DNA of 63,964 nt, counting the filler, from Reclinomonas americana ATCC 50394 (taxonomy: Eukaryota): NCBI GenBank assembly GCA_048213135.1. It is 17 parts of 17 records of this genome, joined end to end, with 100 filler letters (N's around TTAATTAATTAA, not from the genome) between each part and the next. Parts side by side here need not be neighbours in the genome. Positions count along the whole stretch, not along the records: positions 51,975 to 61,987 come from AFZH01023920.1; 16 more parts are not named here. One strand, written 5' to 3'. The notes beneath the pieces are model-generated. The model saw only the letters and a program-made list of their open reading frames with translations, was not told the origin of the DNA and searched no databases. The position numbers were made by a program, and so were the translations under genes. The stretch's first letter is position 1, and each line of letters begins with the position of its first letter. Positions 12,635 through 61,987 of this stretch are shown here, one piece after another.

Positions 12635-12768
12635 GATACCGGCTCAAACGGAGGCGTCAACTCCGAAAGCCGCCAATTCAGTAAGCGCCGGTGCTAAAAG
12701 TGCCGCAAGAGCTCGCTTTTCACGGGCTGGGGAAACAGCAGGCGGTGCAACCGCCGGGAGGGGAGAAC

Positions 12769-13806: not shown

Positions 13807-13810
13807 TCCG

Positions 13811-14641: not shown

Positions 14642-14671
14642 GGTAATAGGCTCGCTCCGTTATCAATCCGG

Positions 14672-14772
14672 GTCGTCCCGGGTGGAGCGAAGCGAAGACC
14701 CGGGACCCATGCCGGAGCGGTTCAGGCATGGGTCACGGATCAGCGCCGCTCACGCGGCTCGTCCGGGACGAC
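14672..14772. repeat. Rhizobiales-type intergenic palindromic repeat (REP/RIME/MITE-like)
   Basis: 101 bp bounded by GTCGTCCCGG..CCGGGACGAC; internal hairpins CCCGGG-..-CCCGGG and GACCCATGCC..GGCATGGGTC. Confidence 0.75.
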
Positions 14773-14852
14773 TTGGTTTCTAAATCAGGGGACGGGAACC
14801 TCGTCCCGTCTTCCGCATTCTTCCGCTGCTCGTCGCATTGCGGAGAAGCGTC

Positions 14853-15778: not shown

Positions 15779-16050
15779 GTCGGCCGTGGCGTCGCATTGT
15801 CGCCGCTGACCCAGGCGCCGCCGCGCCCACGCCCCGAAACGATCTTCTGCCGCTTCAACTCGCTCCAGGCTTCCGAGACCGTGCCGGGGCTGACGCCGAG
15901 CCGGTAGGCGAGGTCGCGGACGGTCGGCAGCTTCGTCCCGACCGGCAGCAGGCCGGAGCGGATCATCTGGCTCAGGTCGAGCGCGAGGCCGCGCGCGGTG
16001 CGCTGAGTCAGGCGGCTGGCCAGCCAGGAGGCGTCGGGTTCGTCGTTCAT
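15779..16050 (-). CDS. GntR wHTH regulator, probably MocR type (PLP domain beyond the gap), partial
   Basis: IRSGLLPVGTKLPTVRDLAYRLGVSPGTVSEAWSELKRQKIVSGRGRGGAWV. Confidence 0.85.
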
Positions 16051-16063
16051 CGACTCGAAAATG

Positions 16064-16108
16064 AATGTTCAGGAACGTAATAGCAATTGATCAGATAGAT
16101 TGAACATT
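16064..16108. promoter_or_regulatory. Spaced inverted repeat AATGTTCA-N29-TGAACATT, candidate regulator site
   Basis: Exact 8-bp inverted repeat in the AT-rich divergent promoter region. Confidence 0.55.
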
Positions 16109-16153
16109 TATCGTGCCTCCCGTCCAAGGTTTTCCGCATAACGAGGCTGTCGT

Positions 16154-17128: not shown

Positions 17129-17286
17129 AAGCCGCGCTCGGACAATTCGCCGTCAGCCGCGAATGGCAGGAGAACCTTGCCACCTCCGTCCGCCTGATGG
17201 GCGAGGCCAAGGCCGCCGGCGCCGATCTGCTGCTGTTGCCTGAAGGCATCCTGGCCCGCGACATCACCGATCCCGACATCGTGCTC
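17125..17286 (+). CDS. Nitrilase-family deaminated glutathione amidase (YbeM-like), partial
   Basis: MKAALGQFAVSREWQEN..GADLLLLPEG; ATGA overlap with the previous gene. Confidence 0.8.
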
Positions 17287-33048: not shown

Positions 33049-34127
33049 TTGGGAGCGCAGGGATGAGGGGAGGGGGGTGGCTGAAAGGGAAAGGGAGGGG
33101 TGAAAGGGGGAAAGGGGGAAGGGTGAGGGAAAAAAGAGGAAAAAAATAATGGTGTGCAAGGAAGGAGGGCCAGACAGGAATCTGTGGAGAGCGTGGCTTG
33201 ACACCACCTATGAAAGGAGATGATGCAACAACTGGGTTGGTGCAACAGAGAGGGCAGAGAGACGACAACACAGTGCAGCATTGCAGAGAGACGAGAAAGG
33301 AAAACGTGTCAGATAAACGCCGTGTATGAGGACGAGCGAATAATAGTGTGATCAAGTGCGAGTGAGGAGTCAACTGGGATGCGGCTGGAATCTGAGGAAG
33401 AAGAGAGAAACGTGACAACAAGAGAAGAAGAGCCTGAGCGAAGGGAGCATAATATGAAGAAGCGCGTGGAAGACGAGTGAATTGCAGCAAAGACGGAGTG
33501 CGTCGTGATGAGAACAAGCTGAGTGGTCGACAAGTTTCTGCAACACAGGCCGAGAGCGCGAGAGAGGCACAATGCCGACACCGGAAACAACAACAGCAGA
33601 CGAAGGACGGAGTGCAAGCAGGAAAATTCTCCACAAGTGAAAAAGAGTGAAAACAAGAGCAAGGAGACAACAAAAGAAGAGAGAGAGAGAGAGAGAAGAA
33701 AAAAAAAGGGACAGAGGGAGACTGAGATCCGTCACGCAACTTTTCTGCTCACGTGAAAACATGGTGACGAGGACGGAGGATGATGCTCTCTGCTCCGACA
33801 GTGGAATGCAACTCGGAGGAATCAATCATCGATCATCACATGCAGCGTGTGTGTGTGCTTGAGGATCGTGCAATGGATGGAAGGTAGGCTGTCGAGACGA
33901 CGTATGGGGGAAGGGGAGGAGGAGCGATCAACCATGTTGACAACTCGAGGGATTGTTTGTGCGAGTGGTGGGCATTTGTGTGTGTCAGTGTGCGAGAGGG
34001 GAACGCGCGCAACGCAAGAGAACAGTTCACAGGCGCAGCAACTGCACTCTACTCTTTGCATGCGGGCACGTACGTGGGAGGGACACAGAGCAACGACGGA
34101 AGGACAGACTTCAAAGCACTAAGTCGT

Positions 34128-35180
34128 TTACCACCCCGCCGCCCGCCTTCCAATCACCACCGCCTCCTCCAGCACAAAGCACCGCAGCACAACGTCGACA
34201 AGAACCCAGTCGCGATCATCCTCTTCTTCCTCGCCCAACATCTCGTTGACGGCCAGCACGGCCAGTCGCGCCGCCGCAATCTCATGCCCGGCAAGCCCAC
34301 GCGCCGTGGACCGCACTCGCACGCGCCTGTCACCCCCACCGGCACTCACCAAGTGCTGCCCATCGCGTGTGACGGCAATGGACCACACCTCGCCAGATTG
34401 CTCTTCGAATCGGCACACTTCTTTCCCCGTCGCCAGCCACCACATGCGCACTGCTATCTTGTCGACGTCGCCAACCCCGGTCACCACGCACTCACCGTCG
34501 CTGGTGACGGCGACCGATGGAACCCCCCACGTGTGCCCGTCCACCCGTCGCACTTGCTCGCCACTCGCCAGCGACCACACTCGCACAGTCTTGTCGAAGC
34601 CTCCACTCACCACGTACTGACCGTCGGGGGTCGTGGCGACCGATTGCACCCTCTCGGAGTGCCCCTGCAGTTGTCGTATTTCCTCTCCGCTGGCCAGCGC
34701 CCACACTCGCAGTGTCTTGTCGCGACCGCCGCTGACAGTGTGCTGGCCGTCGGCGGTGACGGCGACACACGACACGCCCCGCGTGTGCCCCTTCAATCGT
34801 CGCATTTCCTCGCCACTCGCCAGCGACCACACTCGCACCGTCTTGTCTCCACTGCCACTAACAATGTGGCGACTGTCGCCGGTGACGGCGACAGCATGCA
34901 CCCAGTCTGTGTGACCCACCAGCAGTCGCACTTCTTCCCCACTTGTCGCCAGTGACCACACGCGCACTGTTGCGTCTTGACCGCCACTGACAATGTGCTG
35001 GCCGTCGGCGGTGACGGCGAGCGATTCAACCCCTCCAGTGTGCCCCTCGAAGCAGCGCACTTGTGCTCCGCTGGCGAGGGACCACACTCGCACCGTCATG
35101 TCCTCGCTCCCACTCACCACGTGTCGGCCGTCGGGAGTGACAGCGACAGAGTTCACTGCGAGCGCGTGACCCTCGAAGGC
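34128..35180 (-). CDS. 7xWD40 protein with conserved ~55-aa C-terminal tail (last exon)
   Basis: Seven GH..VAVTxDG..SG..D.TVRVW repeats, then LAGHEIAAARLAVLAVNEML..DRDWVLVDVVLRCFVLEE..GW*; splice acceptor at 35181. Confidence 0.9.
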   Translation of the reverse strand, partial: AFEGHALAVNSVAVTPDGRHVVSGSEDMTVRVWSLASGAQVRCFEGHTGGVESLAVTADGQHIVSGGQDATVRVWSLATSGEEVRLLVGHTDWVHAVAVTGDSRHIVSGSGDKTVRVWSLASGEEMRRLKGHTRGVSCVAVTADGQHTVSGGRDKTLRVWALASGEEIRQLQGHSERVQSVATTPDGQYVVSGGFDKTVRVWSLASGEQVRRVDGHTWGVPSVAVTSDGECVVTGVGDVDKIAVRMWWLATGKEVCRFEEQSGEVWSIAVTRDGQHLVSAGGGDRRVRVRSTARGLAGHEIAAARLAVLAVNEMLGEEEEDDRDWVLVDVVLRCFVLEEAVVIGRRAAGW

Positions 35181-35458
35181 CTGCGAGGAGGAGGAATGAA
35201 CCACGCCATGCGCAATGAGGAGCAGGCGGGCACACACAGTTGGAGATCTCACGCATCCGAGACACGCACAGAGGGAGGGAGGGAGGGAGGGAGGGAGAGG
35301 GAGAGGGAGAGGGAGAGGGAGAGAGAGGAGGGAGAGAGAGAGGAGGAGGGANNNNNNNNNNNNNNNNNNNNNNNNNNNNNNNNNNNNNNNNNNNNTTAAT
35401 TAATTAANNNNNNNNNNNNNNNNNNNNNNNNNNNNNNNNNNNNNNNNNNNNACGTAGC

Positions 35459-35459
<1 letters not shown>

Positions 35460-35526
<67 letters not shown>

Positions 35527-35541
35527 CTCTCTCTCTCTCTC
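35460..35541. repeat. (CA)n/(CT)n microsatellite
   Basis: Seen directly at the contig edge. Confidence 0.95.
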
Positions 35542-35882
35542 AATCACTCACTCACTCGCTTGCTTGTGTGTGCAAGTAAGAAGCAGGAGAGGCCGTTGGA
35601 CTCGTCGCTTGTATGCATCGCTTACTTCTCTCTGTGCGTTGACCTCGCCCTCTCTCTCACACACACACATACTTGCACACACAAGCAAAGCAAGAGGCCA
35701 TTTGGACTCAATCGCTAGCTTCTGTGTTGATCTCACTCTCTCTCTCTCTCACACACACACATAGGCGACTAACATGCTCCCACGAAACCACACCTTTGTC
35801 GCCATGGCTCTCCTTTGTGGGAGAAGTGATTCATCCGACGGACAAGTACAACTGATCTCATGACGCTTAGTTCTTCACTGCT

Positions 35883-37200
35883 TCACCACCCCGCCGACCG
35901 CCTTTCAATCACCTCCGCCTCCTCCAGCACGAAGCACCGCAGCACGACATCGACGAGGATCCAGTCGCGATCATCATCTTCTTCTTCAGCAAGCAGCTCG
36001 TTGACGGCCAGCACGGCCAGTCGCGCCGCCACAATCTCATGCCCGGCAAGTCCACGCGGCGTGGACCACACACGCACGGTGGTGTCACGACCCCCGGCAC
36101 TCACAACGTGCTGACTGTCGGGCGTGATCGCAACAGAGTGCACCCAAAACGTGTGCCCTTCCATCCGTCGCACCTCCTCGCCCCCACTCGCCAGCGACCA
36201 CATACGCACTGTGTGGTCCACCGATCCACTGACAATGTACTGTCCATTGGTAGCGACGGCGACTGACAACACCCATGCCGTGTGCCCCTCTAACCGTTGC
36301 ACGACCTTTCCACCGCTCGCCAGCGACCACACTCGAATGGTGTTGTCGGCACTGCCACTCACCACTGTTACGTGCTTCGCACACTCCCCCCCTTACATGC
36401 CATTTATACCCCCCTTATATATGCTTTTCATAGCTTCTGCTCCTTGACCCTTTGTTCTTGACCCTCGGGTACGTGACCCTTAACCCGTTACCCTTGACCC
36501 TTGCAATGGGAGACCTCATATAAGGCAATCAAGGGGGGGAGTGTGCGAAGCCTGTGACACCACGTACTGACCATCAGGAGTGACGGCGACAGACTCCACC
36601 GAGTCCGCGTGCCCCTCCAGCCAGCGCACCAGCTTGCCACTCGCCAGGGACCACACTCGCAGAAAAAGGTCCTGGCTACCGCTGAACCACGTGATGCCCG
36701 TCGGGAGTGACGGCGACAGACGTCACCTCGTTCGTGTGCCCCACCAGTTGTCGCACCTGTTCTCCACTCGCCAGCGACCACACTCGCACAGTCTTGTCTC
36801 CACCTCCGCTCACAATGAGGCGACCATCGGGGGTGACGGCAACAGACCGCACCCGCCCAGTGTGGCCCTCCAGTCGTCGCACTTGCTCGCGAGTCGCAAA
36901 GGACCACACTCGCACAGTCTTGTCGTTACTCCCGCTCACTATGTGCTCACCATCGGGGGTGACGGCGACAGACCGCACCCATGCAGTGTGTCCGTGCAGG
37001 CGATTCACTTCCTTGCCGCTCGCCAGAGACCACACGCGCACCGTCATGTCGTCACTGGCACTCACCGCGTGCTGGCCGTCGGGAGTGACGGCGACAGACC
37101 ACACCCTTCCAGCGTGTCCCCTCAAGACCTGCAATGCGGGGAGGGTGTGAGAGAGGTGATTCTCCTATTGTTTCGCGCTGTGCTCTGCTGTCTGCGTCAG

Positions 37201-37235
<35 letters not shown>

Positions 37236-37335
37236 CACACGCACGCACACTAACGCTCACACATACGCACTCGCGCACACAAGCACACAACACCCGCAAA
37301 CACGTGCACACCTTTGTCGTTCTGCTGTTCTCCAT
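35883..37335 (-). pseudogene. 7xWD40 + same tail paralog, interrupted by a MITE and a +1 indel
   Basis: Exon 1 MENSRTTK (37335-37312), phase-0 intron, exon 2 from 37128; extra base near 36685; removing the insert and one CCAC restores TPDGQYVVSGSADNTIRVW. Confidence 0.85.
36366..36559. mobile_element. 194-bp non-autonomous TIR element (MITE), Ginger/TDD-like termini
   Basis: Left TGTTACGTGCTTCGCACACTCCCCCCCTT versus reverse complement of right end TGTCACAGGCTTCGCACACTCCCCCCCTT; CCAC duplicated at 36362-36365 and 36560-36563. Confidence 0.9.
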
Positions 37336-37642
37336 CAGTCTCTGCGGCGTAGAGCGGTGTGACTTTCTGCGCAGTACAAGTGTGATTGCGATCGTGATTG
37401 CATGAACTTTGATCGGATCGGGACGAGGGTGTTCAGATGCGTCCCGACGTCGCCGTGATGATGATAATCGAACGAGAAGAGTTGTACACCATCGGTGACA
37501 GGGACACTAGTACTGGAGGAAGTGGAACTCGAGATGCCTGGGGCACGGCGAATGTCCTGTCGTATCGCGATCCGTCTGACAACAAAAGTGACCGAACTCT
37601 GGCGTGAGAACAACACAGAATCGAACAACAAATCAGCGAGCG

Positions 37643-38282
37643 ATGACAACGGTGAGCAACGTGCGACGCACATTGTGAGTGTGTATGTGCGTGATACTCT
37701 CAGCACAACTCATCTTGTCGCGCAGTTTCGAGTGCGCGTGAGCGCTGCGCATGATGTCAAGGAACTGACGATAGAGGCGTTGGGCCTGACAACCGCTTCC
37801 ACTCTCGCCGACCTTCTCGCCGACGCCACACACAGACTGCGTGAAAAAAGTGGTGACGCCGCAATGGAGATTGTGGGCGTGGAGAAGCCGCTGCCATTTG
37901 ACATAGAGCGGCTGAGCACTGTTCCACTCGGAGTCTTGGGCATCTCGGGCAACACAGACCTCGTTGTGCGCGTCGCTCTCTCGGCTGGCGCAGTTGCCTC
38001 CAGGTATGTCTTCCACCTCTGCCCCTGGTCACTCATGTACATGTGCCTGCGATGTCTCATTGATCATGGCACCCAAGATCGTGGCCACTGTCGACGGGTG
38101 TCACAGAACAATGGTGAGTGTCCAGGTCTTGATATGTGTTTGCTGTTGTTGCTTTTCACTCTGTTAAGTGAGTGTTTGTGCTTGCGTGTGCGGGCAAGTG
38201 AGGGAGAATCGAATGGGTACGCTGCGAATGCGCAAGTGAACAGCGGAAGATTGAGACTTAACCTTGGAGAGTGAAGAGAGTG

Positions 38283-38320
<38 letters not shown>

Positions 38321-41300
38321 GAGAGTGTGTGGCCACGTGGGAGAGTGGGAATGTCAGATCTAGAAACCCTTGAGTGATCTGTGTGAGTTCGCAGAGAGTG
38401 TATGTACCACGCTTGCTTTTACCGCAGCGCTGCACTCAACACTCGACTATGTGACACAGGTCGATCAACTCGCAGCGCTTCAACATGGCCTTTGAGGTGG
38501 TGGAGGAGGCCGTGCGCCTGCGCTGTCGACGCGCACTGGCGCAGTTCAGTCGCGATCATGCCGACTTTGACGTGCGGGCATGGGTGCCAAGTTTCACGCC
38601 TGCCGGTATGAATGTGGTGGCGGTGAAGGCGTGGCGTGAACGACATGCTCCGCACCGATCTGGTCGAGTTGCGTTGTTCAAGGAGAAGCAGCTTGCGGTG
38701 TCGGCTTGGCGTGCTGCGTTTGACGCCGATCCGTCGTCCGACCCTTCGTGTGACGGGCTCGACACGACGGCGCTCACGTCAATCATGCTGTATGGTGGAT
38801 TTGTTCAAGATGGCGACCGCAAGCTGCTGATTGATGATGGCGATGAACGGAAGGCGGTGGAGGAGCTGCACTATATCAGGAACAAGCTTAGACACGATGA
38901 GCTGCCATTGACAGTTGTCACAGTGCAGCAGTACCTTGGTGACGGAGGTGTGTTTCTCTCCATTCTCTCACGATTGCAGCTGACGGTTAATAAGCGTGCT
39001 CGATTCAGTGCTCGCATCAGTGAGGCACGTCACGCTCGATTCATCGTGGACACATTCGAGGAGCGGCTTCATCGGCTGGCTGTGCGTGAGCTCTCGTTCT
39101 ATCAGCACGATGAGAGTGTGCGCAAGGACATGCAGATGTATGTGCCGCTGCTGTGTTCCCGGAAACGAGATGCCAGAAGAGACCTAGCGGATCTTTTGAA
39201 GGAAGTGGATGCTTTTCTCTCCGACGCTAACATCGCACACCGTGTGCTGGTGATATTTGGCAACAGCGGAGCTGGTAAGACCACCACCATGTCGGTGCTG
39301 GCTGAGCGAGCATGGCGACAGTGGCAGACGAGAGAGAGCAGACGAGTGCCAGTGCGTGCGCCTCTTGGTGCCCTGCGCAACGCTGATGAGCGATTGCTGG
39401 AGGAATCGCTGACGCGTCTGTCTCCGGAAATGAGCGCAAAGGGCGATGCCCGACGACTGAAAGAGGTACCACTGCTTTTGTTGCTAGATGGGTATGACGA
39501 GTTGTACCGTGGTGTGAATCTGTTTGTCAAGAACCAGCTGGATGTATGCCGCGATGTGAAGGTGATTATCACCTGCCGAGGTGATTATGCACTTACGGCA
39601 TTGGGTGGTGTGACACAGTATCGACGGTTGTTTGCGCCAGTTGACTCCAACGGTCAGCTACGTATGGAGCAGCTAATGGAGCGACACATTGCACCATTCG
39701 ACGAATCGCAAGTGAAGGAGTACTTTGGTCGGCTAGTTCAGTTGCATGTCGGTGAAGGTGACGACTGTGTTCCATGGACAACAGCCGACGAATACATGAT
39801 GTCTATGCGACAAGTACGTGGACTGATTGCACTTGTGTCCAATCCATTCCTGTTGACGGTGGCGGCTCGTGTGTTACCACAGTTGGTGGCGAGTGGTGTG
39901 CAACGACCGACTCGGTGTGATGTGTTTGAACGATTCATTCGACAGTGGATTGTAAGGGAGCAGGAGCGACAAGCACGAGTCGTCGGTGATACACGTGACC
40001 AACGCATCCCACGCGAGGGTGTATGTGTAGCTTTCTGTGAGGGACTGGCGCGGTTGATGCATGAGAGGAATGTGGTGCGTGTGTCCGTGGCAGAGAGTCT
40101 GTCTGGTGAGCGTGGAGAGGTGGACATTACTGAATTTGGCGGTGCGCCACTCGCCTCGTCACGAGTGGAAGAGGGACCGTTTGACAAGTTCCTCGGGCAC
40201 AAGAACCAACATGTGCGAGTGTGCTGTCCGATTGTGCGACGGTATGGGACGACGCAGTGGGGATTTGTGCATCTGTCGTTGCTGGAGCACTGTGTGGCAC
40301 GACATGTGTTTGCATGGGAGACGTGGGATGAGGAGAGGAGATTGACACTGCAAGATGTGCAGCAACATGTGCTCGCGGTGCGACTGCTGAATGATCGACC
40401 TTCGTTGGTGGAGCAGATGGCTGAGGTGGTGCGACGGTCTCCTGCGTTGCAGGTGAGACTGTGGGAGGCTATTGAGATGTCACGCGAGGTGGATGAGGAG
40501 CGAGTGGTGACGGCGGCAGCGAATGCGGCGACGGTGTTGTGTGTGGCACAAGTGTCGTTCAGTGGGCGCGATCTGTCGGGTGTGCGAGTGAGGGGTGCGG
40601 ATTTGAGGGATGCGGTGATGCACCGGACGGTGTGGAGGGGAGCGGATTTGCGGGGGGTGAATTTGTGCTCGGCGTATGCGAAGGAGGCAGATTTCACAGG
40701 AGCGGATGTGATGGATGTGAAGTGGCCGAGGAAGCCAATGGTGGGACACACTGGCTTGGTGTGGGCTGTCACTGTCACTCCTGATGGTCAGCACATTGTC
40801 AGCGGTGGTTATGATAGAACAGTAAGAGTGTGGTCCGTGATGAGTGGTGAGGAAGTGCAACGGTTGGAGAACCACGAGGACTGGGTGCTGTCGGTTGCGG
40901 TCACTCCAGACGGTCAGCACATCGTAAGTGGGAGCGAGGATAAAACCGTGCGCCTGTGGTCAGTGGCGAGTGGGGAAGAGGTACGACGACTGATGGGACA
41001 CACTGACGCTGTACGAACCGTAGTTGTGACTCGCGACGGCCAGCTCATTGTGAGTGGCAGTGGGGACAAGACAGTGCGAGTGTGGTCGGTGGCAAGTGGT
41101 GACGAGTTACGACGGTTGGACGGCCACACGGAGTGGGTGCGTTCCGTCACTGTTACTCCGAATGGGCAGCACATAGTTAGCGGCAGCGGTGACAAGACGG
41201 TTCGAATTTGGTCTCTGGCGAGTGGAGATGAGGTGCGACGATTTGAGGGACACACTAAACCAGTGTCATCTGTTGCCGTCACTCCTGATGGTCACTATAT

Positions 41301-42336
41301 TGTCAGTGGGAGTTGGGACAAGACTGTACGAGTGTGGTCCGTGACGAGTGGCGAAGAGGTGCGACGGTTAGAAGGTCACAGCGACTGGGTGCGTTCTGTT
41401 GCCATCACTCCCGATGGCCAGCACATTGTTAGTGGTAGTAGAGATAAAACTGTTCGAGTTTGGTCTCTCTCGACTGGAGAAGAAATGCGTCGGTTGAAGG
41501 GACACACTGACCGAGTGTCGTCCGTTGTCGTCATTCCCGACGGTCAGCACGTTGCAAGTGGGAGCTGGGATAAGTCGGTTCGAGTGTGGTCACTTGCGAG
41601 TGGAGAGGAAGTGCGGCGGTTGGAGGGGCATGCTGATGAGGTGCGGTCTGTTGCCATCACACCCGATGGTCAGAATGTGGTGAGCGGTAGTGTTGACACG
41701 ACAGTGCGAGTGTGGTCTGTGGCAAGCGGAGAAGAAGTGCGACGACTTGAAGGACATGTTGGCCCAGTGCAGTCCATCGCCGTCACTCCAGATGGTCAAC
41801 ACATCGTGAGCGGCAGTGGCGACGCGACTGTCCGAGTGTGGTCCTTGGCGAGTGGTGAGGAAGTGCGACGGCTGCAGGGACACACTGGCGCTGTGCGGCA
41901 CTTGGTCGTCACTCCCGATGGCCAGTATATCGTGAGCGGGAGTGGAGACAAAACTGTGCGGGTGTGGTCACTGGCGAATGGTGAAGAAGTTCAACGATTA
42001 GAAGGACACACCAATGTGGTGTCGTCCGTCGCAGTCACTCCTGATGGTCGACATATTGTAAGTGGCAGTGCTGACCAGACAGTGCGAGTGTGGTCTGTGG
42101 CGAGTGGTCAAGAGGTACGACATGGAAGTTTGGACGAACTCAGCCATGCATATGGCGGCCTGTCTCCGTCTGTGTCGGCGCATGCGATCGCGAGTTGCGC
42201 GAATTTGATTCCTATTCCGTTCGGAAGCGCTGTTCTCTTGAGTAGTCGTGCTGGGTTGCACGAGCGCATATTAGGTTCGTTCCTCCCGGAGTTTGGCGAC
42301 GCTGTTGACGTCCATCAGCGACACCGGTACAGGTGA
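37643..42336 (+). CDS. NLR-like STAND protein: ubiquitin-like - HEPN - NACHT - pentapeptide repeat - 11xWD40
   Basis: Phase-compatible exons 37643-37651, 37726-38003 and 38460-42336; RNKLRH at 38878-38895; Walker A GNSGAGKT at 39259; Walker B LLLLLDGYDE; IITCR; NPFLL; FVHLS; FSGRDLSGVRVRGADLRDA; 11 WD40 repeats of 126 bp at 40744-42120. Confidence 0.88.
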
Positions 42337-42810
42337 CTGCGATAGAACAGCTTGTCAGTGACGGTGACCGTGACGCTGGCTATTGGAGTCGAATATTAGC
42401 TTGCATGCAAACAAAAACTGATGAAGGGATGTATATTCTATATACATCATACCCGCTGCGAGTCTCTTCCCAGCACATCACATGTTCATTGTGACAAGCG
42501 GTCCACTCTGCAACGTGCTCACGATGAGAAGGCTGGAAAGTACCTACGCCTTGCTCAAGCCGTTCAGGAGCGTACTGGCAAGCGAGTAGTGTTCGTACCG
42601 TTGGTCTTTGGCACTGGTGGCATTGTCTCGACACTGACGGCCAATGGTCTGGCCGATTTGGTGCACAAGCATTCTACCAGCCAGCGACGCAGTGATGATG
42701 ACACAGAGCGCCTTCTGCGCAGGTGCTGTGCGTCTGTCGCCCGACACGATCATGTCATTTGGGCGGCACACGTGGCTGCCTGTGTTAGCGTCACCACTGC
42801 ACGGCAGTAA
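42130..42810 (+). mobile_element. Degenerate 3' relic of an RLE-type non-LTR retrotransposon
   Basis: AHDEKAGKYLRLAQ..FVPLVFGTGG fits the K..KY / F.P.v.e..G motif of restriction-like endonuclease domains; HAIASC may be a Zn-knuckle remnant; left boundary approximate. Confidence 0.55.
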
Positions 42811-43267
42811 CCGCTGACACTGGCTCTGCTTTCACGCAACCAGCATGTCTTGCACGTTCTTCCCCTCCACCGCCATCACTGTACATAATGACAGGTGTGT
42901 GTGTGTGTGCTCGAAGTGAGCAGAGACTGAATAATAATCTTTCGCTGATTTTTCTTTTCTTGCGCTTGTGTGTTTGTGCAGATGCTCCGGAGAGCGCTGC
43001 AACGTCTGCTGTGCGGCGCAGGCACAACATGAGAGCGGCAGTGACAACTTCCGTGAGCAACAACAACAACACCATCACCAACAACAACCTCTCATGGTAC
43101 GAAAGAACGAGCAAACTCTCAAATGCATCTCAGNNNNNNNNNNNNNNNNNNNNNNNNNNNNNNNNNNNNNNNNNNNNTTAATTAATTAANNNNNNNNNNN
43201 NNNNNNNNNNNNNNNNNNNNNNNNNNNNNNNNNAACAGCTTTCAATTACTGCGCCTCCAAATCGCCT

Positions 43268-48085: not shown

Positions 48086-49207
48086 TCAGTCGAGGGCCGT
48101 CGGGTAGCACGTGCCCACCATGTGACGCCCGAGCGAGTGCACGGTGACCTTGACGTGGTAGCCGCCCATCTCCACGGTAATCTCCGAGGCACCGGAGCTG
48201 TCGCCCTCGAGGAAGCACAGCGTGTAGAGCGCCAGCTCGAACTCGGGACTGGTGCCGATAAAGGTGCTGCCGACGGCCTTGCGCGCGCCCTTCCACATAA
48301 ACTGCAGCGTGAGCAGACGATCGGTGCCGTGCGGGAGCGGATCGCCACGGCGCCGCGGCAAAATGTAGCCCTGGTAGTCGAGCTCGCCCTTCTTCTCCTC
48401 CTGGAAGATCTGAATCCACGAGTGCATGCCAATGACCTCGCCATCGCGCGTCTCGCCGACAAACACATGCTCAAAGCCGCTCCTGTGCGTCACGAGCGTT
48501 CAGCGGGGCAGCACTGGTAAAAAGCAGCACAGAGCAGCACCACGCAACGAGTCACCACGCGTCTCTCGCGAATACAGCTTCAGCCAGATATCATTCAGCA
48601 GCTGCTTCCACTCGCGCTCTCCCTTCGGCGCCTTCTTCTTCGCCACCAGCCAGTTGTGCGCGTAATGCATGCACGGCGTGGCGGCGACCAAGTCGATAAA
48701 GTTGGTGTTCTCACGAGCCTCGTTGGTCGTCACCACCTCCGCCACACCCGTCTCCGACGTGTAATTGTCGAGGAGAGCGCGGAAGGCACCATAGGTCGGC
48801 CGCTGCCACACCTCATCGCGCACAAACTTGAAGAGCGGAAGAGCAGCGGCATCGCGAGCATCGCCCACGCGCTTGCCACCTCCCAGCTGCAACTCTACGT
48901 GACAAATGAAGGGGAGATGAGAATGTGTGTGTCATGCAACTTTGTGTCATGCATGTAGTAACCATAGTCGACTCCCGGCTCAATGTAGTTCGAGTCGAGG
49001 TTCCACAGGCGGTTGCAGGCGAGGCTAATGTCGGCGAGCTCGGCGGCAGAGGGCACCACATCGGACTGTGTGAGAGAGAGTGAGCAAGTGTGAGTGTGTG
49101 TGCGCGCAATGAGTGGTGCGCGCAACTGTCGACAGGTTGGCCATGGCGTTGGACACGGCGTGCACTCCGGAGCCACTTCCACCAGCAGAACGCGCAGCAG
49201 CTGCCAT
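48086..49207 (-). CDS. EndoU/XendoU poly(U)-specific endoribonuclease (3 introns)
   Basis: LWNLDSN, PTYGAFRALLDNY, SGFEHVFVGE..GMHSWIQ, GSTFIGTSPEFELALYTLCF, GTCYP. Confidence 0.95.
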
Positions 49208-51974: not shown

Positions 51975-52034
<60 letters not shown>

Positions 52035-53420
52035 AGAGAAAGAGAGGAGGGACAGCACAACTCGGCATATGACTGTGCAGGCATGAGTATGAGAGGAAGC
52101 AAGGCAGAAAGAGAACAGGTCACTTGAGAGAGAGAGAGAGGAGGGACACCACAACTCGGCATATGACTGTGCGGGTATGAGCATGAGAGGAAGCAAGGCA
52201 GAGGAGAACAGGTCACTGGAGAGAGAGGAGGGACAGCGCATGAGTGAGTGCGTAACTGCACTCCTCAGGGCAGGAGTGACTGAGGGAGAAGGAGTAAAAG
52301 GGAGCGGGCAAGAGACTGAGAGACAAGAGGACTTGGTGTGTGACATGCACAAAACTCTCGACGGCGGAACCGCGACACCGTTCGCCTGGGCCAACCTCAG
52401 CGCCTCCTCGAGCCCCCGCTGCTTCGTCTCCGCCTGCTTCAACGCCGCCGCGTACTTGCGCTTCGCCGCCTCGGCTTCACGCAGATGAGCAGTCAGCTCT
52501 CGCACAGCACGATTGGCCGCCGACGCCTCGGCCTTCCATCGCTCCATCATTGCCGTCTGCTGCTGCATGGCCGTGGCATGCGCCACGCGCAACTGACTCG
52601 CCCGTGCCTGCGCCTCCTCGCGCACACGCTGCACCTCCTCACGCGCACGCTGCACCTCGGCGGGATCCACCACCGCCACCGGCACCGGCACCGGCACCGG
52701 CATCGCCTCCCGTGCAGCCAGCTTGCGTTCCAGCTCAGCCACCCGTGCCTCGGCCTCCGCGGAAGCACGAGCCGTCGCCTTGGCCGCCGCAGCCTCCAAC
52801 TTGACCTTTTGCGCCTGCATCGCGGCCGTGTGCGTCTCGTTTGCCTTTGCCACTGCGCGCTCCACCGCTCGCTCGTCGGCCAGCTCCACGCGCTTCCGCA
52901 GCTGTGCGACGAGCATCTGGTGTGCCTGACTGTCGTTGCGCACCTGCTGCAGCTCGCGTTGGAGGGTGTCGCGTTCGGCGCGAAGGGCGGCCACCTCGCG
53001 TTGCAGTGGTTCGACAGTGCGCAGTTCCTGGAGCGGGTGGTGTGTGAGGGGAGAGAGAGAGAGGAGGGGAGAGACAGTGGAGGGGGTGTGTGTGCTCACT
53101 TGCCGCGCGGCCTCCAGTTCTGCACTCGTCTGTTGTTGCATGTCGAGAATGGTGTTCGAGTGCAGCAAGATCTTCTTGACGCTGGTGACTTGTCGGCGGA
53201 TTCGATCGGCTTGTTCTTTGCTGAGAGCGCCGTCGGTGGTGGGGGGAGAGAGGGGGGGAAGGGGGTGGGGGTGGAGGTGGGGGGAGGGGGAGGGGGAGGG
53301 GAGGTCTCCATGGTGCAGGAATTGGGCGAAGGCAATTGCGGGACATGACTTCGACGGTGTGCCTGCTGGCTCACAAGGCAGGGACAGCGTGTTTCCGAGC
53401 AGAGGTACGTGCTTTATGTG
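49273..53420 (-). CDS. Large unknown protein with an N-terminal coiled coil, multi-exon, probably spanning the gap at ~51900
   Basis: Coiled-coil exons at 52350-53230; acidic/low-complexity and helical exons at 49273-51630 on the same strand; same minisatellite on both sides of the gap; ends approximate. Confidence 0.5.
51629..52240. repeat. ~90-bp intronic minisatellite (CACAACTCGGCATAYGACTGTGC..AGGAAGCAAGGCAG..GGTCACT) with (GA)n
   Basis: Units at ~51629, 51717, 52056 and 52150. Confidence 0.85.
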
Positions 53421-53554
53421 CACTGTGCCATGGTGCGCGTGTGAGTGGAAACATCAATGATGAAGATGCAACGTCGAAAGTCATCTCAGAGTTCGCGGAT
53501 CCGCTAACGGAGAAGAGAGTTGAATGGTGAGCCGGTTCATTCTCCTTCACAATA

Positions 53555-56500
53555 TTATGCCGGCCTCTCGTGCAGTCGCCGACAAACTTCCAGCCACTCC
53601 ACAGTATTCACGGTGCTTGGATCCTCCTCACCAAGTACCGCTCGCCGACCATCCACACACTCCACCAGCAGTGCCTCTGCCTCGGACCATCGTTGCTGTT
53701 TAATGAGCAGAAGGCCGAAGTTGTACATCGTACGCAACATATCTTCGTGTTTGTTGCCCAACACTTCTCGCTCTCCCCTCAAGCACTTACGATACAAATC
53801 AGCAGCTTCCGCCAGTGATTCTGGAGTGTCTTGTTGTGCGAGAGCACCAGCAAGATTGTTCATCGACATAAGAGTGTCTGGATGTCGATCCCCCAGCGAC
53901 GCTCGCTTCAACTGCAAGCAATCTCGGTTCAGTTGAATTACTTCCTCTAGACGACTATCATCTCGGATACATGCGGCAAAATTGCTCATAGACGTCAACG
54001 TGTCTGGATGATCAGCACCAAGAACTAAACACCGCATCTCCCAACACCATTGATAAACAATCTCAGCATTGGCAGTTTTTTTGTGATCATCGTAGAACCA
54101 CGCCTGCAAATTCAGCGTCAACAGCGAGTCTGGATGACTCTCTCCCAACGTCGCACACTGCCGCCCATGACACTGCATCAGAAGCGGTAAGATGCCTGAA
54201 CAGTGACCAAACCACATCAAGCAGCGAAATGCGTCAATCCTATCCAGCACAGTCATCTCGCCACTGTCATCCCTCTCCCACTCGTCACACAGAAGCCACG
54301 CCTGCTGCCACGCTGCGTTTCGCTTATCCAACTGACGAAGCATCTCAAATAACCATGCACGACACTTGACCACCACAATACAAAGCAGTCGTCGCACTGA
54401 ACTCGTCCGATTATCCCCATCTCCATGCTCTCCACACTCTGTCATACGACGTACCAGTGACATGGCCACTGACGTGTTGAATCCAGCAGAAGGCAGTTCT
54501 CTACTAACCCACAACGCAGCAATCCACTCCACCGCCCCACACTGCACCAGAAGCCCATTCACACCCACGGCATCTCTCGCCCACATGCCGTCATCCTCGC
54601 CCAACCGTCGCCACACAGCGTGAAGCACGCCGAGCAAGTCGCAAGACACCAACAGCACAATATAGTTGTCATTCCAGTCAACGCCACTCAGCATAGAACA
54701 CGCGAGTCGCACCAGCAGTCGCTGCATCCGTGACACGACATCCCCCCACCGTCCCACAATCCACCCAGCAATCTCATCGTGCACTCGATACTCCACCACC
54801 ATATCGCTCTCCCTCACATGCTCACCACAAAGCACACGAGCCACACTGTCCATGCTGCCACTGGCACCCACCGTCACCAGATTCGATATACACAGACCCT
54901 CCAGCACATCCTCCACCTTGTCTTCACCACCACCAGCCACCAACTCATCACGCCGAGCACGCACTCGCTGCTCATCTTCCACACCCATCTCGTCAAACTG
55001 CAGTTTCTCACCCACTACCTCGGGCACACGCCGTCGCCTCTCCTGTGCCAGCTCATGCAATCGCAGTCGACGCACACACCATCCCAACTCCACCAATCGA
55101 CCAGCCGCCTCCTCATCTTGATCAACAGCAGCCTCCTCATCTTCATCACCACCAACCACAGCCACCGTAAAATCGGGAATCACTCGCAACACACCCATCG
55201 CCACTCGTGCAAGTGCCACTGTCACTGGCAAGCCGAGTTCCTTGCATGCCGTAATTAGAACCAACAGTCGACGCGCAGCTGGTGTCTGCGACATCACATT
55301 GCGTTCCAGCAGCCGAGACAGTGCATCGCCACCGATTCCACTCAGCACCTCCTCCAGCCGCGCCCCTACCAGCTGTGCTGGCGATTGCGACAGCAACCAG
55401 CTGCAAGACGAAGAAGAGAGAAAAGAGTGAGTCTTCTCATGCGCACCACTCCCCCACGCACTCAAAGCACTCACCCAACACACGCACTCACTCGCAGTGC
55501 ACTTTTCTCCTCCTGTCCACTCTCCAGCGCCTCCACAATCCGTCGTCGCACATCTCCCGACACCTTGTGAAGGAGTCGCTCCTCCACCAGCTGCACAATG
55601 TCCTCGTTCTCCACGCTCTCCACTCGCACACACTCCACCTCCGCCTCGTGCATCATCGAGTCACGAATCTCATCCGCCACTTGTCCATATCGACTCGTCA
55701 CCACCACAATAGGTGCCACAATTCCGCCTGCACAAAGACACACAATGATACACAGCAAGTCAGGAACCAACATCAAAACAAGAATGACGATTCTCAATCT
55801 CGTGACACAACGCACCCTCATCAGCACATTGAATAACATTCCGCACTTGCTCCGCCGATCCCACATTGTCCAACACAATCACTCCACTCGATGCATGCAT
55901 CAGCTGGCGCAGGAGACGACGTGCTGGCTCCACCTCGCCACTCGCCAGCAGCGCATCCACCTTACCGGCCATTCTTCGTCCCTCCTCTTCTTCCACTCGC
56001 ATCTGTGCCGTAACAAAGGCACGCAGACACTCGCCCACAGCACTCTCCGCCTGTAGCATGGGGCAAGGAGAGAGGGGGAGAGTCAGAATGCCAACAGAAT
56101 GATGAAGCATCATGAAAGACAACATGCTTGCTCCTCTGCACACCTTCACATGCTCCCTCGCATCACCTACATGGCCACGCATTTCCACCGACACGGCAGA
56201 TCCCTTCCATCGACGAGTCGCCAACAACTCGGTCACCAGCAGCTCGGCCAGGAATGACTTGCCAGTGCCACCATCACCCGTTAGCACCACCATGATCGGA
56301 TTATGTGCTGTGCAAGATATCATCACCACCAACAGAAAACACGATAAGGACACATGAATGTAGAGAAGGAAGCAGGTGGAGAGTGAGAAGGAACAACCAA
56401 CCTTCCACAGCATCCACAATGCGCGTGGCGAGCGAGGACGCCAGTGCACGTCGACTCGGGAAGCGGAATGTGGTCACTGGATTGACGGTGCGGGCGATGA

Positions 56501-57790
56501 GTGGTGTCTTGGGTGGGCGATTGCTGTCTGGTGCTGTGTCGCACAATGAGAGTGAGTGAGCAAATGAGCACAGCAATGCACACTCCATGCAGGCACATCA
56601 TGGAACACACCTGCAGCTAAGGGAGAAGAAGGAGAGATGCTTATTGTGGTCAGTTGCTGCCGCATGAGCTCCACTTCGACGCGTATCTGATCAATCACAA
56701 GCAAGTGAGAAACAGAAAGCCGCCTGCAAGCGACCATCGCCCTGAAGTAGTCCCACTCAACTTGCTCCATGTGTGCCAGCAGCAACGACTGGTCTGTTTG
56801 ACTCAACGCACCTGCATTCGACAGCATCAGCTACCACATTCAATCAAATCATCCACACACATGCACCAGCCATCTCTCCCTCCACTCACCATCACGAGCC
56901 TCGTTCAGCTGCATCACCAATTCCTCCTCCACATCCCTGCCAACCTGCAGTCGCCGCACAAGCTTATGCAACTCGCCCTCTCCTCCTCCATCACCGAGCA
57001 GGGGCACAAAGAGTCCACGAGCTCGTGCGGGACTCGCCAGCTCAAACACCTCCCTCATTCGCGCAATCGCATCGCGCTGTGCACAAAGAGAATGAGTGAC
57101 ACAAGCACACAGAGATGATGATCACACTCCTCCTCCTTCCATCTCATTCACACACACTCACCACATCGCCAGCTGGAATCAGGCGATCCGGCTCTTCTCT
57201 CGGGTGCTCTCGATGACCCGCCAGCAGCAAAATCGAGCAGCACAGCATCGCATCAATCGAACTGCAGTCGTGCAGCTGGCCTCGCTGGCGCCACTCGCGC
57301 ACCGTCTGCTGTTCCTTCTCGCTCAACTGGACACACATGTCCACTCCGTCTGGCATGGAGCTGTATGTCGGGAAAGCACAAAGAATGAGAGGAATCTGGT
57401 GAGTGAGGGAATGCGTGTGACAAGAAAGAGAGGGCATTCATCGAGATAGAATGCCGAGTCGTGTGGTGAGACAATGAAGAGTGTGAGAATGGGGAGAAAG
57501 GGATGACCAGCGCGTCACCAGCTGCAACTTTCTGTTCCCTTCTCTCTTCCTCTCTCATTCACAACTTCAATCTGCATCATGCCATTGTGTGCTTCTGCAT
57601 CCTCCCCCACATACTCACCGCACATCACGCTCACTCGGTGCCTTGCACCACTCGGCAACATGATTCACACCGGGATACGAATCGAGAAACGCCGGCAGCA
57701 CTTGCTCGAGTTTCGATTGCAGAGCGCGGGTGCATGGACGAGAGAATGCCATGGCAAGGCGCATCATGCATTCCTCATCTGCAACGTCGT
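53555..57790 (-). CDS. NLR-like STAND protein: inactive HEPN-like domain - NB-ARC - TPR (multi-exon; 5' end may extend to 58013)
   Basis: Walker A VVLTGDGGTGKS, Walker B VIVLDNV, sensor VVVTSR; kinesin-light-chain-type TPRs (LGADHPDTLTSMSN, LGDRHPDTLMSMNNLA); N-terminal exons homologous to the 38460-39030 domain. Confidence 0.85.
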
Positions 57791-58383
57791 GATGACTATG
57801 TGAGAGAGAGAGGAACGAATCACACACACAGTGTGAGAATGACGATGACGATGCATCTGACAACACACAATGAGAGAGACACGCAACTCCCGCGGCACTC
57901 CACTCCCACACGCCATGATGGTGCGCCACAACATGCGCTGTGGCACGTACTGCAGCTGTCAACGATCGATATCGCGCAGTGATTGAAATTTCGAATTCTC
58001 TCATCATGATCATGTATGGCCATGGTCACGCTGCGTGCACTACATGCGACACGTTATAGTTCATCTGTCAGTCTCAGTTAGAGAGAAGTGCGTGAGCCCG
58101 ATTGAAGTGATCGCACCAGAAAGCCGATCGAGCAAATACTGTACATTGACGACATTACAGTACTGTTGGATCTTATATTGAGTGATTCGTCCCCCACACC
58201 GTCCCCCACCGTACGCAGTGTGTCATATTGAGACCAATTATCGCAATTTTATTTTTTTAATCCCTACTTGGAGAGCGCAGTGGAGTATTGCAGCAGCTAG
58301 AGGTGCTATTTGCATTCAGTACAGTGTAGTTCACGTCGTCGTCCCTCACATCGCTGCAATGCACAGTTCGTCGTGTAAACACA

Positions 58384-60838
58384 ATGGCTGCCGCTGCTCC
58401 GTCTGCAAGTCGACAGGGCGGTGGTGGGATTCATATCAGAGGAGTTACGGTTCACCAAACGATGTTCGCTGCAAAGGTGCAGCGTCCAATCGGGCAGGGA
58501 ACCGTGTTCTCGCTGGATTCTTTCAATCTGCGATTGTGTGCCATTTCTGGGAATGTGAGGACGGTGGACGGACTGATTCGAGAACTGTTCCACGATGATG
58601 TAGTCTTCGAATTCGAAGGAGGGCTTGGCATCAAATTCATCGTTCAAGTTGCGCACGTGCACGATCACGACGGCGAACGCGCCATCGACCGAGACGAGCT
58701 TTCCAATTGTCGTTTCCGAATCGTCGCGGAGTTGGACGATTTTGGAGAAGTTGCAGACCATTACAACCGGCTTTTGCAATCCTCCTCAGAGGGGCGCCCA
58801 GAGACCACCGAACACTACATTTTCCTTGGTAAGTTTTCTGTTCCGTTCACCTATTTGAGCGCGACGACTTTGTATAGTATTCATGCGTCATGATCATTTT
58901 GCAGTGTGCGCTGTGCCCATCTTAGGGGCTGTAAGTCCCGGTGATTACCAGTCGCCGCAACCAGACCCAGACCACGAGGGTGACGGGGAGGGTTTGTCAG
59001 CGGAGGCTTCGAAGCAAGTGTCCGCCGAGGACATCAAGATTGAGCCCGCGGCCGTGTCCTCGCGATCGTTCCATGGTGAACGCAAGGCAGCTCGCGCGAC
59101 TGTTTTCGCGATCTTCAACTTCAAAGGCGGTGTGGGCAAAACGACTACTGCGTACCACCTCGCATGGAAGGTATGTCGACGCCGTGCCGTATGAACTTAG
59201 TGTTCGGATCCGGACACGTGCACGCCGCGCTGCGTGCTCCTCGCCTCCCCGTGACACTCACCGTGCCGATGTGCGTGCAACGCAGTTGGCCCAAGAGACC
59301 TGCAGGCCAGTTGTAATGTTCGACTTGGACCCACAATTCAATCTGACGCACCTTTGTCTTGGCGACCGATTTGACTACCAATCACTGTACGATCCTCCGG
59401 TTGTCAGAGCCGACGTCGAAGCCGATGAAGGAGAAGATGCCGCTGCTGTTCCGCTGACAATTGCTGACGCGGTTCAGCCACTTCTCACCCTCGAGTACGG
59501 GAAGATGCAAGCGATGGCTTGTCTCGAAGTTCGTCAGTTCGAGAATCCAGAGGTGAGCAAAAGCTGTTTCTCGACACATGTTGCAAAAGCAGTCGAACGC
59601 ATATGCTTATGTGCACAATCACTAGGGCGTGGGCCGTGATCAACGTCGACTTCTCCGACTGGCTGCTGGCAGCCTGAACATTGCCACGTTTGACCACCAT
59701 CTTACTGCTGCGATACACACACCAGGTGGTGGCTTGACACAACAACAGAACTATCCCGGCGGATTGGATTTTGTGCGTCTGCATGCGCACTCTCGCTAAT
59801 CTTGGCGTGACACGTGAGCTTGACCGATTTCGAATTCTGTTCTGCAGATCATCCAGCGCACAGCGCTTCAGCAGCGCGCTCCATTTGTCGTGCTTGACCT
59901 CAGTCCGAGTTTGTCCGGACTCAACGAAATCGCCATGATGCTGAGCGATGTCATTGTCTTCCCTTGCAACGTGGACTATTTCTCTGGGCTTGGGCTAAGA
60001 AATCTGAATCAGGTTAGCACACTGTGCTTAGGCCTTGCGCGTGATGGTCTCCACAACGGTTTTCGTCTTTACGACCTTCGAATTCTGCGCAGTTCTTCGC
60101 CGAAGCTTTTGCTCGTCGTATTGAAATCATGAGACGCGGCCCTCCGCCTCCTGCCCGCCTCCAGTTCCCCTTCCCGAAGACTCTGCCGCCACAGTTTGGC
60201 GGCGTCTTCATTTCTAACTTTAAGACTGCAGGCGCGAGTCGATTCGGTATGTTGTTGCAATATTCTTCGAGACAGCAGTGCTGTCAAGGTTTCCGTTCTT
60301 ACCGCAGCTGTGATTGCACAACAGTGTCTCCTGTTGGGTCGCCTATTGTGCAAGACCACATTCAGAAGATGATCAAGAACGCTCAAAAGTGGTTCGATCA
60401 CGTGTCGCAACACGCCGAGGGCCTGCGAGCAAGTTTTGTCGTTTTGCAAAACCAGGCAATTGACAAGATGAGAGAAGTCGGTCTCTTAGACCAAGTTGTC
60501 GGCCGCCGTGGATTTAGATCCCTCGGTCATGAGCACAGTAGCATTCTTGGTGCACTTCAGGTGAGAACTCTTGCTGATCGTCGTAAGTAGCATCGTGGAT
60601 ATTTACTCACAAAGAACTCTTCAACTGCTGTGAGCAGAACTTCTCGAACATCATGCTGATGGCGCTCAGTCAACTGCGTCCAATGTTCGAACTCAACGAT
60701 GGAAGTCGGATCCGTGACGCTGGTTCCCTGGTGCGCTACAGCGAGCGAAATGCGAGGTCAATCTTGCAGCACGCCGAGGTTGTCAACCAAATGTTCATCC
60801 ACATGGTACGGACGCTGTTGGAGACATTTGCTGCCTGA
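58384..60838 (+). CDS. ParA/Soj-family ATPase with an N-terminal extension, 7 spliceosomal introns
   Basis: FNFKGGVGKTT (deviant Walker A), DLDPQFNLT, VLDLSPSLSGLN, PCNVDYFS, FPFP..PQFGG, QNFSNI..RPMFEL; GT..AG introns near 58829, 59171, 59552, 59776, 60012, 60247 and 60561. Confidence 0.88.
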
Positions 60839-61353
60839 TTCAAAGGATCGCGCATTCGGTCTTGTCTGTCTCTTTGAAGTCGTACTTTGCAGCGCTTTTT
60901 TCTTTTCTGCTTCTCTCCTCTCTGATGGCTCATCGTCACTCTTTATTTGCTACGTAAACCCACTGGATCTACAGTCCTAAATTTGCGCGCTGGCAGTCGA
61001 CTGCAGCTGCCTGGCGCGCATGCAAACGGCGCATCGGTGCAGCCAGCGGCATCATCATGTGGTGGTGGCGGACAGTGCTGCGTACGGAAGGGCGAGATCA
61101 CGATACCCCCTGCATAACGTTAGGAAGACCCAGCGATCGTGCACGGCACATCGAATTCGGGAAAAGGCCATAAGTCAGGCAAACAAAGCAAAGGCGGGTC
61201 CGGATCCGTGAAGCAGGCAAAGCAAAAGCAGTGGAGGCGTCGTCATTTGGTGGCGAGGTTGAAACAAAAGAGAGCTTGTCATGTTGCTTGTGGGGCTCAT
61301 ATCGGTGATGGCTTGAGCAGGTGGTAGATACAGTAAGCAAGTTCATTCATCAG

Positions 61354-61987
61354 TCACAACACCACACCGACCTCGCTCGCACACCGCCGACATTCTGCCA
61401 GCCACTCGACTGCCTCCTCTGTCTTCGAATCCAATTCACCAAGCACCGTCCGCCTTCCATCCACACACTCCACCAGCAGTGCCAATGCTTCGGACCACTG
61501 TTGCTGCTTCATAAACAAGTCTCCGTAGTTGTATATAGTCCGCAACGTTTCCTCATGCTTGTCGCCCAGTATTTCGCGTCGTCCGTCCAAACACTCCTGA
61601 AACAAATCAGCGGCTTCTACCAGTGCTGTTGGCGTGTTCTGTTGCTTGAGAGAAAACGCAAGGTTGTTCATCGACATGAGAGTACTCGGGTGTCGATCTC
61701 CGAGTGCGGCCAGCTCCAACCGCAAGCAGTCTCGCTCGAGTCGAATCCTCTCCTCCAGGCGACTGTCGTCCAGGATGCAAATAGCAACATTGCCCATGGT
61801 CGCCAACGATTCTGGATGCTCAGCTCCAAGCACCAGTCGTCGCATCTCCCAGCACCGTCGCCAAATTGACTCAGAATCCGCAAATCGTACTCGATCATAG
61901 TGATGCCGCGCCTGGACATACAACGACGTCAACGAATCTGGATGACACGCACCCAACATTGTGCACTGCCGCTCATGACACTGCAGC
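61354..61987 (-). CDS. TPR C-terminus of a paralog of the 53555 NB-ARC-TPR gene (partial)
   Basis: Colinear with 53555-54180: CWEMR.LVLGA.HP, DDSRLEE, LGDRHP.TLMSMNNLA, WSEA.ALLVECVDGRR. Confidence 0.92.

Follow-up and report, generated by a model that had tools for sequence, protein, structure and literature searches.

The locus examined here raises the question whether two receptor genes of Reclinomonas americana ATCC 50394 (GenBank assembly GCA_048213135.1) carry one and the same N-terminal domain in two states, enzymatically active in one protein and inactive in the other. The window, i.e. the whole stretch of 63,964 nucleotides that was analysed (positions 1-63964), consists of 17 contig pieces joined by N44-TTAATTAATTAA-N44 linkers (32 runs of N in total). 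The two genes are located on separate contigs: gene A, encoding a NACHT-pentapeptide-WD40 receptor, on the piece at 35452-43133, and gene B, encoding a predicted STAND NTPase with TPR repeats, on the piece at 51975-61987. The original prediction held that gene B bears a catalytically dead version of the HEPN-type N-terminal domain of gene A on an NB-ARC-TPR chassis, and that the two proteins could form a sensor/executor network. The best explanation overall is a diverged domain that is shared by two STAND chassis and would act as a HEPN-type RNase in gene A and in a non-catalytic manner in gene B, a composite reading that is held tentatively, at slightly less than even confidence.

The N-terminal domains of genes A and B are very probably homologous and would then represent strongly diverged paralogues, an estimate based on the results of similarity tests, on the same placement of both domains in front of a STAND NTPase and on their probable origin from one genome. 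The splicing proposed for the domain of gene B (..ERDVR/SMPD.. and ..PAGDV/RDAIAR..) was reproduced in the predicted gene model, in which exons 1-3, together covering 56890-57767, are separated by introns of 258 and 85 nt with GTGAGT..CAG borders. BLASTP of the spliced domain against gene A gave 24.3 bits at a pairwise E value of 9e-4 (34/133 identities, 20% gaps). The Smith-Waterman score of the pair was 58, a value reached in 1 and 2 of 3000 composition-preserving shuffles. When 120 real proteins unrelated to the pair were cut into 1800 overlapping windows of 200 aa, no window attained it (maxima 56 and 52), and neither did any of the 120 N-termini of these decoys (maxima 47 and 49). When four matrices were each combined with a full shuffle, a 15-aa window shuffle and a 12-aa block permutation, the observed score was matched by 0 or 1 of 2000 randomised sequences in every one of the 12 tests. 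Global alignment from the MAF motif to the end of the domain yielded a score of 35, compared to -56.4 (standard deviation 14.5) for the shuffled sequences (z 6.3, 0/3000), with 51 identities in 155 columns, and hhalign returned P values of 1.4e-3 to 1.7e-3. In a tblastn search of the whole window with the gene B domain, the best non-self match was the N-terminus of gene A, the only other complete STAND gene; no further copies were found in the window with either domain as a query, and the open reading frame (ORF) lists of the other contigs contained no further STAND N-terminus.

Several results weigh against homology and would fit a chance likeness of two unrelated helical regions rich in Arg, Ala and Leu. 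The window-wide tblastn match reached an E value of only 0.23, and the phmmer score of 3.0 bits lay inside the noise defined by 124 unrelated proteins, one of which scored 3.1. Single exons of gene B gave non-significant BLASTP matches to gene A (E 0.13 and 0.63), with exon 2 alone favouring another register, at gene A residues 46-62, and the first ~60 aa did not exceed chance level (1285/3000 shuffles). The hhalign probability was only 6-18%, one real decoy window came as close as 56 to the observed score of 58, and the pair had been chosen by eye after the window had been read. The pairwise and profile comparisons suggested as a check on the original prediction gave a divided result. A chance likeness is nevertheless considered quite unlikely, given the shuffles and block permutations, the real-protein windows, the global alignment and the location of both regions directly N-terminal to a STAND NTPase. 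Taken together, the similarity is real and above chance, yet weak.

All four sequence blocks quoted in support of the alignment are present in the two sequences. In gene A, however, the first ATG comes after the RFN of the first block, and the second block has a competing register at gene A residues 46-57. Two similar AV.AWR elements are found in the gene A domain (38611-38655 and 38686-38727, aa 43-57 and 68-81), and gene B likewise contains two tryptophan-containing elements at comparable spacing, which accounts for the competing alignment registers. The doubled AV.AWR elements may mark an internal repeat.

The assembly is a mixture of a eukaryote and an alphaproteobacterium, because four pieces of the window (8070-10382, 10483-12848, 12949-15678 and 15779-17286) are bacterial, with a GC content of 0.65-0.68 and one ORF whose product shows 97% protein identity to Bosea locus L001. 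The tetranucleotide correlation of these pieces with the gene A and gene B pieces was only 0.23-0.43. The pieces carrying gene A and gene B, by contrast, correlated with each other at r 0.85, the top value for both among the 17 pieces, and have a GC content of 0.56 and 0.55, respectively. Relative synonymous codon usage agreed between the two coding sequences (r 0.88, compared to 0.02 against a bacterial ORF), as did the GC content at third codon positions (0.57 and 0.58). The match in composition and codon use speaks against an origin of the two contigs from different organisms, and genes A and B probably belong to the same genome.

The N-terminal domain of gene A is assigned to the HEPN superfamily with modest confidence, somewhat better than even. 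The assignment leans on one RNxxxH motif, RNKLRH, and on a lead from a protein language model; it has no support from profiles, databases or a fold. The motif pattern RN...H is rare: a decoy set of 110,867 residues contained it twice, and the extended form found in gene A (LHYIRNKLRH) never. The generic pattern Rx4-6H, in contrast, is uninformative on its own because decoy proteins contain 2.2 instances per 200 aa. For comparison, a profile of the HEPN_RiboL-PSP family (PF18735) was built from 22 ORFs of 29 loci (family present in 42/401 genomes; locus L107 of genome G386 was left out). The RNxxxH pattern is located in the last third of 11 of these 22 bacterial sequences, and a twelfth has RH in place of RN. 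In the family as in gene A, the motif helix has the form hydrophobic-x-x-hydrophobic-R-N-x-hydrophobic-x-H and falls within the last third of a ~200-aa domain, and hhalign sets the motif of gene A on the motif helix of the family. The clusters nearest to the gene A domain in the language-model Atlas were HEPN_RiboL-PSP (score 0.90, 14/30 matches), and the ten best named matches all belonged to one family or clan.

These observations are opposed by a series of negative searches, in which the gene A domain behaved as an orphan. No HEPN or other family was matched in Pfam (E up to 1), nothing in NCBIfam and PADLOC (E up to 10), no relative among PDB sequences (E up to 10) and none among 1.84 billion protein representatives (E up to 0.001). 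A word-indexed search of proteins of 705-2246 aa retrieved no relatives either, and none of the 200 pattern matches obtained in prokaryote genome contigs was confirmed as one. By any test run, gene A is not a member of the RiboL-PSP family: the profile gave 0.4 bits, inside the range of 1000 shuffles, and hhalign a P value of 0.24; on gene B, the same profile produced no significant match. An Atlas score of 0.9 was reached by 4-10 of 100 shuffled proteins according to the tool's own figures, and the single-sequence AlphaFold2 model of the domain was unusable (mean predicted local distance difference test score 36.9). The HEPN label of the original prediction fits the motif present in gene A, but no profile search or fold backs it.

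The same searches, together with the failed structure model and the Atlas score within reach of shuffled sequences, would be expected if genes A and B shared a lineage-specific helical domain that serves as a non-HEPN adaptor or effector. RNKLRH would then be coincidental and the contrast between an active and a dead copy would vanish. It fits this alternative that the residues conserved between the two domains (LGDGG, RLQ, EAR and the GD.R.A block) differ from the HEPN motif. The rarity of RN...H, the agreement of the gene A motif with that of the bacterial RiboL-PSP family in both sequence and relative position, and the restriction of the best named Atlas matches to one family or clan argue in the opposite direction. 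A non-HEPN domain is regarded as less likely than the HEPN reading.

In gene B, the pattern RN...H is absent from the predicted protein and from every minus-strand frame of 56800-57800, so the loss of the motif is no artefact of the choice of splice sites. The stretch opposite the RNKLRH helix of gene A (about 57014-57076, in exon 3) contains no histidine. The only generic Rx5H element in the domain is RQRGQLH (aa 74-80, 57270-57290), which is encoded in exon 2, outside the motif-aligned position. BLASTP of exon 2 pairs this element with RERHAPH of gene A, which leaves some doubt about the loss of activity. It could accordingly be argued that the gene B domain is catalytic through other residues, such as a shared WRxRxxxH element, and HEPN families with a displaced histidine have been described (PMC3710099). 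The element of gene B is, however, of a generic type that is common in decoys and lies in the N-terminal half of the domain, unlike the motif of the 22 RiboL-PSP sequences, and the joined alignment places it on a different segment of gene A; catalysis by such residues is considered highly improbable. The description of gene B as catalytically dead is consistent with the missing RNxxxH in all frames, but holds only if RNKLRH is the active site of gene A, and is thus conditional on the gene A domain being a HEPN RNase.

Gene B (53555-57767) was reconstructed from the minus-strand sequence as a predicted gene of nine exons. All eight introns start with GT and end with CAG (74-258 nt), and the joined frame comprises 3366 nt (1121 codons plus stop) without internal stops; the start codon is uncertain, with three candidate ATGs in exon 1. 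The predicted protein consists of a helix-prone N-terminal region of ~175-178 aa, a linker, a P-loop STAND NTPase and TPR repeats. Exon 3 contributes the LGDGG, RLQ and EAR blocks. The repeats pass the Pfam gathering scores for TPR_10 (85.0 bits compared to 27.5, E 2.5e-24) and TPR_12 (66.0 bits compared to a cut-off of 30.1, E 3.6e-18). The NTPase gave weak Pfam P-loop matches (AAA_16, E 3.7e-4; nSTAND3, E 0.0026), and NB-ARC (PF00931) remained below its gathering score when an unspliced ORF piece was searched (11.2 bits compared to 23.5). The motifs occur in an order like that of NB-ARC domains (GDGGTGKS, VIVLDN, VVVTSR, GLPVTVALA). A newly built NB-ARC-TPR profile (14 proteins), scored against spliced gene B, gave a weak 8.6 bits, which none of 300 shuffles attained (maximum 6.4), and aligned the P-loop first and Walker B/TSR second. 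Judged by these motifs and by the bit scores of both profiles, the NTPase is only to be named an NB-ARC-like STAND, with an NB-ARC-like motif order but short of NB-ARC membership by the Pfam cut-off. The claim that one domain occurs on both NACHT-WD40 and NB-ARC-TPR receptors is thus upheld as regards the shared domain, which is probable given the above-chance similarity and the matching composition and codon use, whereas the NB-ARC label was not reached in any profile search.

Relatives of exon 9 comprised 127 proteins at E values up to 1e-5. The best 120 of these align with the TPR part only (15-46% query cover) and all carry TPR-family Pfam labels; none of the 120 listed is an orthologue with a comparable N-terminus, and none of them matched the first 560 aa of gene B better than E 0.1 in phmmer. 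An Atlas look-up with exon 3 gave no usable match. A second TPR gene is represented on the same contig by its 3' end alone (61354-61986, minus strand), as its N-terminus lies beyond the contig end. Its product is 63% identical to the C-terminus of gene B over 201 aa (E 1e-92) and shows TPR_12 and TPR_10 matches; on the basis of this identity, gene B is a predicted member of a local paralogue family. A gene with introns that encodes a P-loop ATPase of the ParA/MinD-like type (58385-60838, plus strand; AAA_31 and CbiA matches on two ORF pieces) lies between the two TPR genes and head-to-head with gene B.

We infer the loss of activity in gene B and all mechanistic steps as follows. Gene B is read as an intact gene, rich in introns, that encodes a three-part STAND receptor, and one lineage-specific domain in effector position would be carried by two chassis. 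Ligand-bound gene A receptors would most likely oligomerise, bringing their N-terminal domains together and thereby switching on a metal-independent RNase. The gene B copy would most likely be non-catalytic and either bind RNA or mediate homotypic clustering once gene B oligomerises, with each receptor acting on its own. Two independent STAND receptors that have inherited one effector-position domain are the most economical reading.

The active site of HEPN RNases is formed across a dimer, so that heterodimers of an inactive and an active paralogue are conceivable. On this basis, the motif-less domain of gene B could pair with the active domain of gene A as a sensor partner, inhibitor or adaptor. 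In such a sensor/executor pair, the RNase of the WD40 receptor would be gated, inhibited or recruited by the TPR receptor. Degenerate NTPase motifs in one partner are frequent, though not universal, among paired NLRs. No such degenerate partner was seen here: the P-loops of gene A (GNSGAGKT) and gene B (GDGGTGKS) are both intact, and gene B also has a Walker-B-like motif. The two genes lie on different contigs and show no head-to-head linkage, and the identity of ~33% between their N-terminal domains suggests a long independent divergence. Sensor/helper networks of NLRs are known from plants (PMC9975940), and the NRC receptors described there, two NLR-type proteins with divided labour, are the model behind the network idea; genes A and B differ from them in the absence of linkage and of a degenerate NTPase. 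The proposed sensor/executor or inhibitor pairing is not supported by these data, and both the pair as such and a heterodimer of an active gene A copy with a motif-less gene B copy are viewed as very unlikely. The two-receptor reading without pairing is retained below.

HEPN-NLRs, HEPN-STAND-TPR proteins, inactive HEPN domains and shuffling between NACHT-WD and NB-ARC-TPR receptors have all been described already, and the gene A/gene B pair opens no new class of system. An exchange of effector domains between NACHT-WD and NB-ARC-TPR receptors has been published for fungi (PMC4986451), and HEPN domains on NACHT or STAND-TPR proteins, inactive versions included, are likewise on record (PMC3710099, PMC8662601). 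The term 'pseudo-HEPN' was not found in the literature searched, nor was a sensor/executor pairing of this kind. HEPN, NACHT, NB-ARC and TPR occur together in the literature on bacterial NLR-related proteins. STAND-centred conflict systems count HEPN among their effectors (PMC8195603), NLRs with an N-terminal HEPN domain have been reported from nine invertebrate taxa (PMC8662601), and HEPN fusions to NACHT and to STAND plus TPR include 'mostly active' families as well as non-catalytic members (PMC3710099).

Among the known systems, the invertebrate HEPN-NACHT proteins (DZIP3/hRUL138-type and CXorf38-type; PMC3710099, PMC8662601) resemble gene A in combining an N-terminal HEPN-type domain with NACHT and repeats. 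Their families have expanded within single lineages, and their motif is 'mostly conserved', so that active and inactive copies coexist. Gene A differs from them in that it has no Pfam HEPN match, DZIP3 included, its repeats are of the WD40 and pentapeptide types, and its host is not known to be an animal. Bacterial HEPN-STAND-TPR proteins of the Npun_F6454 type (PMC3710099) unite three modules in one polypeptide, as proposed for the ancestry of gene B, and are 'mostly active', which implies that motif-less members exist. Unlike them, gene B is eukaryotic, has eight spliceosomal-type introns and could not be related to bacterial HEPN domains by sequence. In fungi, one N-terminal domain can be carried by NACHT as well as by NB-ARC proteins, 21 of the 24 possible combinations being realised, and NACHT is preferentially joined to WD or ANK and NB-ARC to TPR, a NACHT-WD/NB-ARC-TPR pairing exactly as in genes A and B (PMC4986451). 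Genes A and B, however, gave no Pfam match to any of the twelve N-terminal domains annotated in fungi, and those of the listed exon 9 matches that bear fungal names are TPR-repeat proteins with a query cover of at most 46%. For the proposed function of the gene B domain, a close likeness is offered by non-catalytic HEPN domains such as MtlR (PMC3710099), which has lost Rx4-6H and presumably binds RNA or exerts regulation instead of cleaving. MtlR, however, is a bacterial regulator that stands alone, whereas the domain of gene B takes the effector position within a STAND receptor.

If the preferred reading of one diverged domain on two independent receptors is true, a eukaryote builds STAND receptors by mixing and matching effectors, NTPases and repeats, as fungi and bacteria do, and a HEPN-like effector can diverge past recognition by profile libraries or a search of 1.84 billion proteins. 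Active and motif-less copies would then coexist in one genome, and the pair would provide a small natural experiment on the function of a motif-less HEPN domain when it takes a receptor's effector position. If, on the other hand, the heterodimer were real, the two receptors would form an NLR network of sensor and executor that acts in trans and is found outside plants and animals.

The coordinates of both genes and their parts are given in the following table. In gene A, the NACHT domain (PF05729) lies above its gathering score (35.2 bits compared to 26.7, E 1.3e-8) and is covered at model positions 1-160 of 167.

Table 1. Predicted features of genes A and B (positions in the window; +, plus strand; -, minus strand).
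Feature	Position	Strand	Remarks
Gene A	38485-42336	+	single open frame, 1283 aa
Gene A N-terminal domain	38485-39039	+	aa 1-185; orphan by sequence
Gene A stretch resembling gene B	38668-39030	+	from tblastn/BLASTP
Gene A RNKLRH	38878-38895	+	aa 132-137, within LHYIRNKLRH; HEPN-type RNxxxH signature
Gene A NACHT NTPase	39241-39726	+	Pfam PF05729
Gene A pentapeptide repeats	about 40636-40713	+	Pentapeptide, E 2.1e-8
Gene A WD40 array	about 40747-42141	+	WD40, E 2.1e-131, 11 stretches
Gene B exon 1	57767-57619	-	aa 1-49 plus two bases; MAF motif; donor GTGAGT at 57618
Gene B exon 2	57360-57162	-	aa 50-116, middle of N-terminal domain; acceptor CAG, donor GTGAGT
Gene B exon 3	57076-56890	-	aa 117-178, C-terminal part of N-terminal domain
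Gene B exon 4	56811-56611	-	within linker and STAND NTPase block 55475-56811 (exons 4-8)
Gene B exon 5	56533-56402	-	within linker and STAND NTPase block (exons 4-8)
Gene B exon 6	56307-56144	-	P-loop GDGGTGKS
Gene B exon 7	56050-55816	-	exons 7-8 hold Walker-B-like VIVLDN, then TSR
Gene B exon 8	55727-55475	-	exons 7-8 hold Walker-B-like VIVLDN, then TSR
Gene B exon 9	55400-53555	-	GLPL-like motif, helical region, C-terminal TPR_10/TPR_12 repeats, stop codon

Upstream of gene A, a 268-aa open frame is located at 37468-38274 (plus strand), with a GTGAGT at 38114. As an upstream coding exon of gene A it was rejected, given that the acceptors examined break the frame and that Pfam yielded no matches on it. 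Two WD40 genes on the minus strand (35883-37164 and 34128-35351) share their type of repeat with gene A and end in an almost identical C-terminal tail; one is arranged head-to-head with gene A, the other lies on the neighbouring contig, and no NTPase was seen in either.

Elsewhere in the window, two long cysteine-rich open frames with repeated CP.G...C units were found at 17387-20062 (plus strand) and 25879-28666 (minus strand), which encode 927 and 943 aa, respectively, and both run off their contigs. An ORF at 48086-48499 (minus strand) matches the C-terminal half of XendoU endoribonuclease (E 1.2e-44), and the catalase encoded at 30712-33207 (minus strand) is of the long type, ending in a DJ-1/PfpI-like domain (Catalase, E 1.1e-175; Catalase_C, E 1.7e-12).

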